From: Chloroflexota bacterium
Lineage (GTDB): Bacteria; Chloroflexota; Dormibacteria; CF-121
NCBI GenBank assembly: GCA_005881215.1
Contig: VBDZ01000003.1
Coordinates: 1-58,560, forward strand
Reading direction: 5' to 3'
DNA length: 58,560 nt
Part shown: positions 17,756 to 27,695 of the stretch, piece by piece
How the letters are laid out: each line of letters starts with the position of its first letter
How positions within the stretch are numbered: position 1 is the first letter of the stretch
Notes under the pieces: model-generated
Databases searched by the model: none
Seen by the model: only the letters and a program-made list of their open reading frames with translations
What the model was told of the DNA's origin: nothing
Program-made: the position numbers and the translations under genes

Positions 17756-20020
17756 TCAGGCCGCTGTCGTCAGGTCGATCGCCTCGGGCACGGCCCGTTG
17801 CGGGATGGTGAACGTGAAAGTGCTGCCCAGCCCGGGCGAGCTCTTCACCCAGATCCGTCCGCCGTGCATCTCGACCAGCTGGCGAGAGATCGCCAGGCCG
17901 AGGCCCGTCCCCTGGTACTTACCGCTGATCCCGCTCTTTCCCTGTTGAAAGCTTTCGAAGATGCGCTCCGCATCCTCGGCCGGCACCCCGATGCCGGTGT
18001 CGCGCACGTTGATGCGCAGCTCCGCCCCCTGGCGCTCCGCCGTCACCCGGACGCTGCCGGATTCGGTGAACTTGATGGCGTTACCCAGCAGGTTCAGCAA
18101 CACCTGCTTGAGCTTTGGACCGTCGGCAAAGACCCGCCCCACCTCGGCGGAAACGCTGGCGCTAAGCTCCAGCCCCTTGGTCTTCGCCAGCGAGCTGACG
18201 CTTTCGACGCACTCCGAAATCAGGGGCTCGATGTCGACTTCGCCGCGGTGCAGCTGCGCCTTCCCCGCCTCCAGTTTCGAGATGTCGAGCAGGTCGTTGA
18301 TCAACGCCAGCAGGTGCTGACCGTTCTGGGCGATGATGTCGACGTCCTGCCGCTGCTCACGGGTGAGGACTCCCCCGTCCCCTTCGAGCATCAGCTGGGA
18401 GAAGCCGAGGATCGAGTTCAGCGGCGTGCGTAGCTCGTGGCTCATGTTGGCAAGAAATTCCGACTTGTGCTGATTCGCGCGATGGAGCTCGGTATTGACG
18501 GCCCCTAACCGGGCCGTCTGCTCGGTCGCCAGGTGGAACAGGTGCGCCTCCTGGATGGCGGTGGCGGCGTGCTGCGCGAACAGCGTCAGGAGCTCGATGG
18601 TGTTGCGGTCCAGCGGGCGCCGGTGGTACACAGCGAGCACCCCAAGCAGCTGGTCGCCGACGACGAGCGGGAAGCCGGCGAACGCCTGGATGCCTTCCTC
18701 CGCCATCCATGGGCTGAGTCCGACCTGACGGTGATTCGCCGGGTCGTTGGTGATGATGGGCACCCGCAGCTCGGCCACCTGGCCGACCTCACTCATGCCG
18801 CGCTCGACCCGGCTGGGGACCGGCGGGGCATTCCGGGTGGTGTGATGACCGGCTCGTCGCCAGAGCGCGCCGTCGCTCGGCTCGAGCAGCCACACCTGCG
18901 CCGCCGCGAAGCCGAGATTGCCGGTGAGCGCGCTGGCCACGATGTCGAGCAGCTCCGGCTCGAACAACTTCTGGTTCATCTGGTCGATCGATTGGTTCAG
19001 TAGCTCCAGGCGACGGGCGCGTTTCTCGGTCTCCTCGAAGAGCCGGACGTTCCGCAGGGCGACGGCCAGCTGCTGGGCCAGGACCTCGAGCGCCTCCACT
19101 TCCCATTTCGTCAGCCGGCGCTGATCGTCGCGAGTCTGCAGATGCAGGACGCCGAAGACCTTCCCATCGAGGATGACCGGCGTTCCGAACACGGCTGCAT
19201 AACGTGTCTGGTTGAGCGCCGGCGCGTCGAACAGGGGCGGCCGGGTGAGCATCGTAAAGCGCCGCTCCCGCACTGCCCGGCCCACGATCCCCTCCCCGGC
19301 GGAGATCGAGGATCCCTCGATGGCCTCGGGCAGGCCGACCGCCGCTCGCAGGGTGAAGACGCCGCGATCTTCGTCCAGGAGCACTACCGCGCCCGAGTCC
19401 ATCTGGAGCAGCTCCATACCGCAGCGGATGACGGTGTTCAACATGTGCGCCACGTCCAGCTGGCCGACCAGCTCGCCGAGCACGTCGCGGAGCTGCTCGG
19501 TCTGGTCGAGGCGCCGCCGCGTGCCCCGGATCTCGGTATTCATGGCCCGCACCGCCGCCCCCAGGCCGGTGATGACGGCGACGGTCGGGATCGCTCGCAG
19601 GACGGCGTCGCGCACCGAGATGGCCAGGCCCAGGTCGCTCGTCTGGAAGAGGATGATGCCACTGGTCAGAAACAGGCTGGTGCCGATCCCACCCCAGAGG
19701 TCGAACCGGAAGATCGCCTCGGCCGCCACCAGCGCGTAAAGCAGGTAAGGAAGGCTCGACGACGGCGTAGCGAACAGCAGGATCCAGCCGCTCACCACCA
19801 GGTGATCGAGTACCAGCAGGAGGACGGCCATCGGTCGGGCGAAGCGAGGGACCGCCTTCTTCTGGATGGCCAGCGCGGCGACCCCGTTGCACGCCCCCAG
19901 GAGTCCGGCCAGCACGACGGTGATCGGCACCGAGGCGGAGGGCAGCCAGAGCAGCAGGCCGAAGGGAATGGCCAGCGCGACGAAGCGGAGCCTGACGAAT
20001 TGGCGATCGAGGGCAGTCAT
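17756..20020 (-). CDS. Membrane sensor histidine kinase: TM sensor, two GAF domains, HisKA and HATPase
   Basis: About 5 TM; two GAF-like segments; EFLANMSHELRTPLN, NLLGNAIKFT, DTGIG, GTGLGL. Confidence 0.93.
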   Translation of the reverse strand: MTALDRQFVRLRFVALAIPFGLLLWLPSASVPITVVLAGLLGACNGVAALAIQKKAVPRFARPMAVLLLVLDHLVVSGWILLFATPSSSLPYLLYALVAAEAIFRFDLWGGIGTSLFLTSGIILFQTSDLGLAISVRDAVLRAIPTVAVITGLGAAVRAMNTEIRGTRRRLDQTEQLRDVLGELVGQLDVAHMLNTVIRCGMELLQMDSGAVVLLDEDRGVFTLRAAVGLPEAIEGSSISAGEGIVGRAVRERRFTMLTRPPLFDAPALNQTRYAAVFGTPVILDGKVFGVLHLQTRDDQRRLTKWEVEALEVLAQQLAVALRNVRLFEETEKRARRLELLNQSIDQMNQKLFEPELLDIVASALTGNLGFAAAQVWLLEPSDGALWRRAGHHTTRNAPPVPSRVERGMSEVGQVAELRVPIITNDPANHRQVGLSPWMAEEGIQAFAGFPLVVGDQLLGVLAVYHRRPLDRNTIELLTLFAQHAATAIQEAHLFHLATEQTARLGAVNTELHRANQHKSEFLANMSHELRTPLNSILGFSQLMLEGDGGVLTREQRQDVDIIAQNGQHLLALINDLLDISKLEAGKAQLHRGEVDIEPLISECVESVSSLAKTKGLELSASVSAEVGRVFADGPKLKQVLLNLLGNAIKFTESGSVRVTAERQGAELRINVRDTGIGVPAEDAERIFESFQQGKSGISGKYQGTGLGLAISRQLVEMHGGRIWVKSSPGLGSTFTFTIPQRAVPEAIDLTTAA

Positions 20021-20035
20021 CCGAGCCCCCGAAGC

Positions 20036-25632: not shown

Positions 25633-27695
25633 GCCGCCCTCCCCTGCACCTGGGCCAGCATCGGCAGCCGCGGGATGAGGAAGCGGAAGGCGCTCCCCTT
25701 CCCCGGCACGCTTTCCACCCAGATCTGTCCGCCCTGGAGTTCGACCAGCCGGCGGGAGAGCGCCAGGCCCAGCCCGACCCCCTCGTAGGTACGCGAGGTG
25801 GAGCCGTCGACCTGGCGGAATTCCTCGAAGAGGCGGGGTTGATCCTCCGGCTTGATGCCGATCCCGGTGTCGCGGACTTCCACCACCGTCCCGGGCTGCG
25901 TCTCCACCGCACTGATCACGACGCTGCCGTGATGCGGGGTGAACTTGATCGCGTTGTTGACCAGGTTGTGGACGACATGGCGCAGGCTGCGCGGGTCGAA
26001 GACCACCTGCATCCCGCGATCGATCTGGGACGTCACCGCGAGTTCCTTCTGGGTCGCCGCCGCCGCGTTTTCCGAGAGCGCGGCATCGACTGCCTCGGCC
26101 AAAAGACAGGGCGCCGGGTGCAACTCCAGCCGGCCGGCCTGGATGTGAGTCAGGTCGAGGATGTCGTTGATCAGCTTCAACAAGCGCCGGCCGCTGGTGT
26201 GGATGGTTTCCGCGAACTCGCCGCGTTCCGCCTCTGACAGCTCGGGCGTGGTGCGAATGATCTCGGAGAATCCGATGATCGCGTTGAGCGGCGTGCGCAG
26301 CTCGTGCGACATGTTGGTCAAGAACTCCGACTTCATCCGGTCGGCTTCCTGTAACTCGAGGTTGGCGCGCTGCAGCATCTCGATGGTTTGCCGCTCGCGC
26401 TGGAAACGGCGGGCATTGTCGAGCGCGACCGCGGCCTGGTTCGCCAGGATCTGCAGCACCTGCATCAGGGTGGCGTCGAACGCCCGCACGTCATGGAAAT
26501 AGACCGAGACGGTGCCGACGAATTCGCGTTCCAGGAACATCGGCAGCCCCAGCGCCGCTCGCCATCCGTAGCGCTGAGCCAGCGCATCGAGCGGGAAGCG
26601 ACCGTCGAGCTGGATGTCTTCGGAGAAGACCGGCCGCTGCTCGATCACGACCTGGGTCACCAGCCCCGGCGAGACATGCGACAGCGGGGTGCCGTGGACG
26701 CTGGGATCGACGCCCTCCCCCACCTCGATCACCTGCTCCGTCCCCCCACTCCCCTGCGTCAGCGTGATCAGGCAGGAGGCCGCCCCGGAGACTCCGATCA
26801 CGGCCCGCGCCACGCCCTGCAGCAGCGCCGTCGGTCCGACGGTGGTCGCGGTCAGCGCCTGCGACACCTGGCGGAGCATCTCCATCGAGGTGTCCAGCCG
26901 GAGCGCCTGCTGCCGGGTCTGCTCGAACAGGAAGGTGTTGTCGAGCGAAACGGCGACTTCCGCGCCCAGTGAGGCCGCCAGCTTGACGTCGTAGTTGCCG
27001 CTGAAGGTGCCGTTCCGCTTGTTGGCCAGCATCAGCACACCCACCGGCCGGCCGCCGGAACCCAGCGGAACCAGCAGCAGGTCGCGATAGCCGAAGGTCT
27101 GCGGCAGCAGCTGCCCGGCTTCGATGTCGTGCAGGCAGTCCTCGACGATCACCGGTTGCTGGGTGACGAACACGCGGCCGATCAGGGTCGACGCGTTGGC
27201 CCCGAAGCGCAGCTGGTTGAGGCGCATCTGGTTGAAAAGCCGGCTTTCCCGCATACCGGAGGGCGCGGCCGGCGCGATCAGCGCCTCGAGACCTTCCTGG
27301 TACAGGAAGAACCCGCACATCTCGACGTCGAGCAGATCGGCAAGCTTGGTCGTCAGGCTGCCCAGGTCTTCGCCCAGCTTGGTGAGGTTGGACACCGCGG
27401 TAGCCGTTTCGAAGAAGTGGCTGAGTTCCTGGAGATTCTGGTCGGCGCGCCTGGAGAGCTCGAGGTTTTGCTGGACCAGCCGGAAGTATTTGAAGCTCCA
27501 GAAGCCGGTCAATACCATCACCGGCAGGAAAAGCACCGCCAGGAAGTAGGTCGCTGGGGACGGCGCCCACCAGCGGGCAACATAAATCAGAAAGAGCTCG
27601 GTCAGGGTGCCGAGCACGAACCACAGGCGCCAGTTGAAGCGGTTACGGGCGCCAGCAAATGGACGCGGTCGCGTCACGAAATCCTCTTTGGCCAC
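25629..27695 (-). CDS. Membrane sensor histidine kinase: 2 TM, two GAF domains, HisKA and HATPase
   Basis: N-terminal hydrophobic hairpin; two GAF-like segments; EFLTNMSHELRTPLNAIIGFSE, NLVNNAIKFT, GVGLGL. Confidence 0.93.
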   Translation of the reverse strand: MAKEDFVTRPRPFAGARNRFNWRLWFVLGTLTELFLIYVARWWAPSPATYFLAVLFLPVMVLTGFWSFKYFRLVQQNLELSRRADQNLQELSHFFETATAVSNLTKLGEDLGSLTTKLADLLDVEMCGFFLYQEGLEALIAPAAPSGMRESRLFNQMRLNQLRFGANASTLIGRVFVTQQPVIVEDCLHDIEAGQLLPQTFGYRDLLLVPLGSGGRPVGVLMLANKRNGTFSGNYDVKLAASLGAEVAVSLDNTFLFEQTRQQALRLDTSMEMLRQVSQALTATTVGPTALLQGVARAVIGVSGAASCLITLTQGSGGTEQVIEVGEGVDPSVHGTPLSHVSPGLVTQVVIEQRPVFSEDIQLDGRFPLDALAQRYGWRAALGLPMFLEREFVGTVSVYFHDVRAFDATLMQVLQILANQAAVALDNARRFQRERQTIEMLQRANLELQEADRMKSEFLTNMSHELRTPLNAIIGFSEIIRTTPELSEAERGEFAETIHTSGRRLLKLINDILDLTHIQAGRLELHPAPCLLAEAVDAALSENAAAATQKELAVTSQIDRGMQVVFDPRSLRHVVHNLVNNAIKFTPHHGSVVISAVETQPGTVVEVRDTGIGIKPEDQPRLFEEFRQVDGSTSRTYEGVGLGLALSRRLVELQGGQIWVESVPGKGSAFRFLIPRLPMLAQVQGRAA

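Follow-up and report, generated by a model that had tools for sequence, protein, structure and literature searches.

The stretch analysed here, called the window, comprises 58,560 nucleotides of contig VBDZ01000003.1 from a Chloroflexota bacterium of the Dormibacteria, an uncultured soil bacterium in the family that includes Candidatus Dormibacter, represented by a metagenome-assembled genome (2.79 Mb, 255 contigs, 88% complete), and it carries at positions 17756-27695 a six-gene operon, with genes named A to F in the direction of transcription, that encodes histidine kinases, receivers and coiled-coil proteins. The operon is real, well delimited and family-specific, being composed of known domains in an unusual arrangement, and the family of its fifth product, E, in which a coiled coil is followed by a DHp domain and two receivers (REC), is undescribed and constitutes the main item of interest. 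We read the locus as a family-restricted, translationally coupled, branched His-Asp phosphorelay, a reading to which a probability of roughly 0.55 is assigned. The inventory comprises three kinase cores, three canonical receivers (the second receiver of B, the single receiver C and the second receiver of E) and one DHp histidine that has no ATPase domain attached to it.

Operon layout and domain composition

The six open reading frames (ORFs) lie on the minus strand and occupy 17756-27695 exactly. According to the ORF list and a Pfam scan, these are gene A at 25629-27695 (688 amino acids, first in the operon), B at 23203-25632 (809 amino acids), C at 22848-23237 (about 129 amino acids), D at 22483-22848 (121 amino acids), E at 20036-22483 (815 amino acids) and F at 17756-20020 (754 amino acids, last in the operon). 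As read from the sequence, the A/B junction is an ATGA overlap in which the start of B overlaps the stop of A, the C/D and D/E junctions on both flanks of D are TGATG overlaps, and E is separated from F by a 15-nucleotide gap with a G-rich Shine-Dalgarno sequence. The B/C junction is neither ATGA nor TGATG; here, C overlaps the 3' end of B by 35 nucleotides, an overlap present in every orthologous locus, and the most likely start of C is the GTG at 23237, located 8 nucleotides behind gaaggagga. These overlapping junctions imply translational coupling of the six genes. An earlier note on this DNA had described six coupled minus-strand genes joined by ATGA or TGATG overlaps or short gaps; the set and its position are borne out by the ORF list and the sequence, and the wording fits the A/B, C/D, D/E and E/F joins, B/C being of another kind.

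The first and last genes encode membrane kinases, and the Pfam scan shows the order GAF-GAF-HisKA-HATPase_c in both, as the earlier note had predicted. In A, the domains lie at residues 114-251 (GAF), 288-426 (GAF_2), 454-521 (HisKA) and 567-676 (HATPase_c). A hydropathy scan gave one to two membrane segments for A, about five to six for F and none for B to E, which is compatible with the two segments formerly ascribed to A and revises upward the topology formerly given for F. Inspection of the translations located the N, G1, F and G2 boxes in A, B and F, each of which has a complete, intact kinase core. The orthologues of A are 67-94% identical over about 30 loci, and those of F are 56-92% identical.

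B consists, from its N-terminus, of a pseudo-receiver (R1), a canonical receiver (R2), a HisKA-HATPase_c core, another pseudo-receiver (R3), a degenerate receiver-like domain (R4) and an Arg-rich tail. In Pfam, it has three Response_reg stretches together with HisKA (79.1 bits) and HATPase_c (117.4 bits), the latter two forming an intact core. The receiver-like domains were aligned with CheY and Spo0F, which served only to fix the columns. At the acceptor position, Asp57 is replaced by Asn in R1 and by Glu in R3, and the degenerate R4 has Ala; only the N-terminal R2 is canonical, and the substitutions are conserved in 33 aligned sequences comprising the window and its orthologues. A hybrid kinase has a C-terminal receiver with an acceptor Asp, whereas the C-terminal receivers of B carry Glu (R3) and Ala (R4), and with R1, R3 and R4 all devoid of the acceptor, B is not a working hybrid kinase. 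The former label of soluble hybrid kinase thus stands for solubility (no transmembrane segment) and for the hybrid order of domains, and fails for the receivers, three of four of which lack the acceptor Asp. Residues ~790-809 of B (window 23203-23260) form the conserved Arg-rich tail QRRRRTGRDRRQGLDRRR, and the last part of this tail shares its DNA with the ribosome-binding site and start codon of C, which places it under dual constraint.

C was found to be one Response_reg domain (Pfam) with the canonical E/D, D, T and K residues, 80-98% identical among orthologues, in keeping with the single-domain receiver proposed earlier. Together with R2 of B, the second receiver of E and the neighbouring OmpR-type regulator, it is canonical in the receiver alignment. 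The Pfam scan of the six proteins revealed no Hpt and no DNA-binding domain, the absence of HPt being as first described. An NCBIfam search of all proteins returned generic kinase and receiver matches, none of which reached an equivalog cut-off. The DivJ model (NF050805) gave 176.7, 201.2 and 165.4 bits for A, B and F, respectively, against a cut-off of 1000, and the PdhS model (NF041593) gave 132-154 bits for the same three against a cut-off of 2000; the DivK-type model (NF045717) was outside the best 25 matches of C and was matched only by the second receiver of E, which with 95.9 bits fell short of the cut-off of 160. With DivJ scores of 165-201 bits, the caution that the H-box of these kinases does not imply DivJ/PleC orthology was well placed.

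Protein E, its family and its truncated duplicate

E is composed of a head motif (residues 9-31), a heptad coiled coil, a DHp/HisKA domain, a degenerate first receiver (REC1) and a canonical second receiver (REC2), all encoded on the minus strand. The coiled-coil rod spans 21233-22453 (residues 11-417, from AlphaFold2 helices and periodicity), the DHp domain 20846-21040 (residues 482-546, Pfam HisKA at 50.7 bits against a cut-off of 26.9), REC1 20444-20797 (residues about 563-680, from the receiver alignment) and REC2 20066-20404 (residues 694-806, from Pfam and the receiver alignment). Its H-box reads DQSH487DLNSPLNAIIGFSEILLD. The Pfam scan gave no HATPase_c match in E, and only 17 residues lie between DHp and REC1, so that there is no room for a catalytic or pseudo-catalytic domain. 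An AlphaFold2 model of full-length E, built on a 12-sequence alignment (predicted local distance difference test, pLDDT, 60; predicted template modelling score, pTM, 0.24), was used for secondary structure alone; it shows helices at 11-229 and 237-417, a break containing Pro/Gly, the DHp helices and two receiver folds, with the DHp helices leading directly into the receiver fold. When the C-terminal module was searched by sequence against the PDB, isolated receivers were the only matches, and no solved structure of a DHp-REC-REC protein devoid of a catalytic domain turned up.

All orthologues retain His487, as do 16 of 16 aligned members of the E family, which include paralogues down to about 45% identity. 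In the same 16 members, the +1 residue is variable, being D or E in only seven, and the +4 residue is always Ser or Thr. The +1 acid in HisKA kinases serves autophosphorylation. A fixed histidine with a relaxed +1 acid is the pattern expected of a DHp domain that would exchange phosphate with receivers and not phosphorylate itself from ATP. REC1 keeps Asp57, Thr/Ser and Lys, while its second Mg-binding acid is Asn in E and never Asp among the 16 members; the acceptor residues of REC2 are fully canonical in all of them. The DHp-REC-REC part of E is near-invariant among orthologues, and the coil varies. The closest DHp domain in the genome is that of B, with 46% identity, and in a tree of the 18 DHp domains detected in the genome, E groups with A, B and F in one clade.

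These data also bear on the alternative that E is a decayed hybrid kinase, a pseudokinase or a phosphate sink, whose histidine is unused and whose REC2 damps the system as a competing acceptor. The loss of the ATPase domain and the family-wide degeneracy of REC1 agree with it, and structural pseudokinases such as PsmA are known (PMC12963549), but His487 remains invariant while the +1 residue drifts, which argues for selection on the histidine itself, and the DHp domain is among the most conserved parts of E. We consider decay improbable and retain E as a phosphorelay component.

The N-terminal region of E has a hydrophobic period of 3.52 residues over positions 11-417, with a power of 7.6 against 1.14 for the 95th percentile of shuffled sequences, and a Pfam search of the coil at E<=1 returned coiled-coil noise only. 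The orthologues measure 815, 826, 828, 840, 854 and 864 amino acids and differ in coil length. The head motif (9-31) and a set of Trp motifs are invariant among orthologues and recur in D and in distant family members; the latter are of the type (Q)W-x-x-[DE]-R and lie at W67, W162, W187, W229, W303, W356 and W406, examples being QLQWAMDRxxLL, KWQAERQRL, DWQSRE and AWTGREQRL. Tryptophan is rare in coiled coils, and the motifs may be repeat units or partner sites.

Two paralogues of E with the same coil-DHp-REC-REC order were identified by a search of the genome, both of them stand-alone, at C105:13736-15334 on the plus strand and C83:553-2544 on the minus strand. Identity in their C-terminal module is about 52%, both finish with the tail KRGERRxR...AA, and they adjoin dnaE and excinuclease (uvr-like) genes, identified by eye, outside kinase operons. 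Most sampled genomes of the family of the host, referred to here as f1, contain one or two stand-alone paralogues besides E. Full-length E was found nowhere outside f1 in a 400-genome sample of the phylum; there, and in the other Dormibacteria families, the E query matched just its REC-REC part within ordinary hybrid kinases. An exhaustive search of 1.84 billion representatives recovered about 15 clusters (50% identity) with a single match from DHp to REC2, all of which have the head motif and the coil and are without an ATPase domain.

D is a heptad coiled coil as well (period 3.52, power 2.5 against 1.29 for the 95th percentile of shuffled sequences), for which Pfam gave only weak coiled-coil noise. 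The small coiled-coil protein and the giant coiled-coil phosphoprotein that the earlier note had placed in the operon are thus borne out, D and E both being integral, conserved members. D aligns to residues 36-128 of E with 32% identity, its C-terminal tail RYLQQGRKAA repeats the tail RYLQQGRLKTA of C, and the DNA of the C/D junction aligns with that of the D/E junction with a score of 122 against 63 +/- 9 in shuffles (z about 6.6). The likeness to the E head, the copied C tail and the junction alignment point to a tandem duplication that spanned the 3' end of C and the 5' part of E, and D is best explained as a truncated tandem duplicate of the E head plus a copied C tail. Every locus retains D between the same two junctions. 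Its ratio of nonsynonymous to synonymous substitution rates (dN/dS) is 0.17 over 21 orthologues (210 pairs, with dS near saturation), and it is under purifying selection. In genus g218, the most divergent one, D is about 175 amino acids long and contains the Trp motif.

Ala-Ala is the C-terminus of A, D, E, F and the two E paralogues, compared with a background of 5.3% among 2196 called genes. Orthologues preserve this ending in D, E and F, while those of A mostly end in -VA, and C ends in -TA. The tag of the transfer-messenger RNA (C135) of this genome is ANRELAYAA. The Ala-Ala ends could represent a shared C-terminal degron.

Conservation of the operon and the proposed phosphorelay

For the comparison, 41 loci were taken from one-genome-per-species records. 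Every long-enough contig has the order ORFan, A to F, GDT1, OmpR-type regulator and Zn-peptidase, with identities down to 56-70%, and the six genes and the ORFan are together in five of five sampled genera of f1. Full-length E, full-length B and the OmpR-type regulator occur in all sampled f1 genomes, and searches of the other sampled Dormibacteria families recovered neither full-length E nor full-length B. In genus g17 (G398), the operon and the ORFan are on another contig than GDT1-OmpR; unrelated genes occupy the two break points, and a GNAT gene has entered between the ORFan and A. Genus g218 (G429) has two extra genes separating F from GDT1. Neither rearrangement splits the six genes, and an intact operon within rearranged flanks is more informative than synteny alone. 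The claim that the gene set is conserved as a unit in relatives therefore holds within f1, over five genera, and that of a multi-kinase His-Asp network in one conserved unit agrees with the Pfam scan, the receiver alignment and the synteny. A literature search on Dormibacterota signalling did not find this locus.

The six genes could also be independent two-component proteins that are merely adjacent and do not form one signalling unit. Most flanks are likewise syntenic in the family, and synteny alone is for this reason weak evidence of linkage. Nonetheless, the overlaps imply translational coupling, the set survives rearrangement of its flanks, A, B, E and F share one DHp clade, D arose from an internal duplication, and the counts of kinases and receivers are unbalanced with the output domain absent, all of which make mere adjacency very unlikely. 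A single phosphorelay unit is the reading pursued below.

The Hpt domain (PF01627) was not found in the genome itself, which is 88% complete, and is present in 2 of 17 f1 genomes as against 16 of 44 genomes of other Dormibacteria families. Given this scarcity, any multi-step relay would need a non-HPt transferase. The idea that E-type proteins are the specific replacement for HPt in f1 was set aside, the Hpt contrast being judged suggestive on a rough estimate only. Hybrid-type kinases do occur in the genome, for instance a 911-residue protein on C214.

In the proposed phosphorelay, the membrane kinases A and F would read cytoplasmic or membrane cues and phosphorylate receivers of the set, and B would be switched by phosphorylation of its sole intact, N-terminal receiver and thereby act as a second tier or amplifier. 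E would be unable to autophosphorylate; His487 may take phosphate back from C or from R2 of B, or receive it in trans from a kinase, and this phosphate would then be passed to REC2 of E or drained. E would in this way be a DHp-type node with phosphotransferase or phosphatase activity, comparable to Spo0B, ChpT or RedE. Its coiled coil of ~400 residues would make it an elongated dimer; the system is likely read out without transcription, through the way this dimer assembles or binds partners, and D probably pairs with the E head or competes for it.

Several points weigh against this proposal. The wiring, that is, which protein phosphorylates which, is inferred only. Spo0B and ChpT keep a pseudo-catalytic domain, and E is without one. 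The HisKA phosphatase motif has Thr or Asn at +4, unlike E, where this residue is Ser. The AlphaFold2 model of E has low confidence (pLDDT 60), the conservation of the locus in a single family with syntenic flanks makes synteny a weaker proof of functional linkage, and a transcriptional output through the adjacent OmpR-type regulator, discussed in the last section, is a tentative possibility.

Among systems understood by experiment, the one whose logic comes nearest is RedCDEF of Myxococcus xanthus, where a dual receiver phosphorylates a kinase-like protein that has no autophosphorylation of its own, and this protein then strips phosphate from a single-domain receiver (PMC2755868). Both are operons of a kinase, a kinase-like protein, a dual receiver and a single-domain receiver with no output domain; E resembles the fused roles of RedD and RedE, and C resembles RedF. 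The likeness is one of domain inventory only. E unites the dual receiver and the kinase-like DHp in one chain; Red has one true kinase where this operon has three, and has neither a coiled-coil rod nor GAF sensors. RedE keeps a HATPase_c-like domain.

Spo0B of Bacillus and ChpT of Caulobacter, the nearest analogues of a DHp that serves as a transferase, are DHp hairpins with a phosphorylatable histidine and without ATP-dependent autophosphorylation, features that E would share as judged from its sequence, and they sit between receivers in a multi-step relay, in which C would here correspond to Spo0F. In both, a degenerate alpha/beta domain resembling a catalytic one packs against the DHp. E agrees with this kind in its conserved-His DHp and its lack of a functional ATP-binding domain; it differs in having no residual catalytic-like alpha/beta domain and in its two fused receivers and 400-residue coil. 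ShkA of Caulobacter (DHp-CA-Rec1(pseudo)-Rec2), reported to be activated by c-di-GMP (PMC6969517), is like E in having a degenerate first and a canonical second receiver behind the DHp, and differs in its working catalytic domain and the absence of a coiled coil. PsmA is a hybrid-kinase-like pseudokinase of the Streptomyces polarisome with a polar role shown by experiment (PMC12963549). Like E, it is kinase-derived; it no longer autophosphorylates, as is predicted for E, and it acts with coiled-coil polarity proteins; PsmA lost the histidine and keeps a degenerate catalytic domain, whereas E keeps the histidine and lost the catalytic domain.

In Caulobacter, the DivJ/PleC-DivK-(DivL)-CckA-ChpT circuit is positioned with PodJ and PopZ, and its output is the DNA-binding CtrA. 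This circuit resembles the operon in having several kinases, a single-domain receiver, a non-HPt transferase and associated coiled-coil proteins, and differs in that its scaffolds are separate proteins without phosphorelay domains. The earlier note had drawn on it and taken D and E as positional scaffolds that localise the kinases and the receiver in a polarity or developmental circuit like DivJ/PleC-DivK-ChpT with PodJ/PopZ, which we regard as doubtful. In its favour are the long heptad coil of E, the invariant head motif common to D, E and the E paralogues, the precedent of a kinase-like polar protein in PsmA of the Streptomyces polarisome (PMC12963549) and the best fold matches of the ORFan, which are weak ones to an ARC6/PARC6 division-protein domain. 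However, no feature in the sequence reports localisation, polarity or development, the operon has no polarity or division gene, none of A, B and F comes near the cut-off of the DivJ model, the DivK-type model matches REC2 of E alone and below cut-off, the E paralogues stand alone by housekeeping genes, and NTF2-like folds are generic. E is moreover not a passive scaffold of the PodJ/PopZ sort; with an invariant histidine and a canonical receiver, it is itself a component of the relay. It is likewise doubtful that E is a coiled-coil rod whose assembly or partner contacts depend on phosphorylation of its own His487 and REC2 and are tuned by D, that it organises the three kinases and the receiver in space, and that it forms, with the NTF2-like ORFan, a new cell-organisation or division-control module of the Dormibacteraceae; should this be so, scaffold and phosphotransferase would be one protein.

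The phosphorelay reading is of interest in that a multi-step phosphorelay ordinarily depends on an HPt domain or on a transferase of the Spo0B/ChpT type. A mostly HPt-less family here carries two to three E-type copies per genome, each with a bare DHp, an invariant histidine, no catalytic remnant, receivers and a long coil, and if E relays or removes phosphate, this would extend the known builds of the second histidine step and tie the chemistry of a phosphorelay to an elongated structural protein without an intermediary. The parts are soluble domains that can be produced recombinantly, so the model is testable although the organism is uncultured.

The neighbouring regulator, candidate operator repeat and ORFan

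The OmpR-type regulator (Pfam) is encoded at 16046-16912 on the plus strand, 0.85 kb beyond F, and has a 48-residue N-terminal extension. Downstream of it is a gene for a GDT1/UPF0016 cation transporter (17158-17751, plus strand), convergent with F and ending 4 nucleotides from its stop. The regulator is an orphan, its transcription unit lacking a kinase gene. Its best NCBIfam match is RpaB with 204.6 bits against a cut-off of 330, and it is not a member of that family. It is the most conserved gene of the neighbourhood (92-100% identity in 26 aligned sequences), being 84-98% identical in 17 of 17 f1 genomes, with 84% in genus g218, and a search of 44 genomes from other families at E<=1e-60 did not recover it. 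It adjoins the operon in four of five genera and is apart in g17, two apparent exceptions to this adjacency being explained by contig breaks. In G429, the GDT1 region is present on both C94:1-627 and C51:1402-2028 with 95% identity (L064, L058), probably reflecting strain heterogeneity that broke the assembly, and this duplication matters for judging the adjacency of operon and regulator in that genome.

The 154 bp that separate the ORFan from A have at their centre, at 27774-27789, the direct repeat GTTTAC-AAAG-GTTTAC, whose period is 10 bp. Of 30 intergenic regions aligned, all 30 preserve it, although their flanking sequence has diverged. Neither the 2.79-Mb genome nor the window contains a second copy (0.01 matches expected), and genus g17 does not have it. 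The HLR1 element of RpaB is (G/T)TTACA(T/A)(T/A), with 8-nucleotide direct repeats 2 nucleotides apart (PMC6525291); the first half-site of the repeat is a full match to it, and the second agrees at 5 of 8 positions. A looser form of the motif is no more frequent in the genome than expected, and no regulon was definable. The repeat is a candidate operator for a winged-helix regulator of the OmpR/RpaB type, and repeat and regulator together hint at a transcriptional, and perhaps an autoregulatory, link.

It is thus possible, though less probable than the relay itself, that the OmpR-type regulator is the terminal acceptor, binds the GTTTAC-N4-GTTTAC repeat and makes the system at least autoregulated, in what would be a compatible added branch. 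The regulator is an orphan with the family-restricted distribution of the operon, is more conserved than any operon gene, adjoins the operon in four of five genera and has RpaB as its best family match, and the repeat fits HLR1, is found in 30 of 30 loci and is unique, its absence in g17 coinciding with the separation of the regulator. On the other hand, the regulator is in convergent orientation and outside the operon, its RpaB score of 204.6 is below 330, the second half-site agrees at 5 of 8 positions only, the phyletic pattern is common to every family-specific gene, there is one genomic site, and g17 is a single event. The earlier statement that DNA-binding output is lacking accordingly applies within the six genes, as the Pfam scan indicates, and is qualified for the neighbourhood by a regulator 0.85 kb away and an HLR1-like repeat in the promoter region.

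The ORFan, defined by synteny and AlphaFold2, lies at 27850-28320 on the plus strand, divergent from A, and encodes 155 amino acids. It always adjoins A and is 77-100% identical among loci, more conserved than the kinases and one of the best-conserved genes of the neighbourhood; a word-seeded search of a 5.8-billion-protein collection recovered 28 clusters, all at least 76% identical. AlphaFold2 predicted an NTF2-like cone (pLDDT 75, pTM 0.71), the best Foldseek matches of which are the intermembrane-space domains of the plastid-division proteins ARC6/PARC6, weak ones with TM-scores of 0.54-0.61 and an E-value of 8e-4. Pfam at E<=1 gave only sub-threshold Tim44 and PP2 matches, and no obvious signal peptide or transmembrane segment was seen in the translation. 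Extension of the operon into the upstream genes for GT87, methyltransferase and GT2 was considered and rejected, as the opposite-strand ORFan intervenes and those genes are syntenic in few loci.

A scan of 15800-28500 for promoters and terminators gave matches no commoner than in shuffled sequences. Conserved blocks are located directly upstream of the GTG of A, and a TACTCT hexamer ends 6 nucleotides before the GTG of the ORFan, a pattern suggesting that both transcripts may be leaderless. About 0.9 kb upstream of the OmpR-type regulator, a Flp-type pilin of 63 amino acids with the motif GQALIEYSLI is encoded at 14960-15151 on the plus strand. In genus g17 (L061 1248-4943), TadE/TadG-like N-termini, recognised by a look at the sequence, adjoin GDT1-OmpR, and the regulator may be part of a Tad-pilus gene neighbourhood instead of being tied to the operon.

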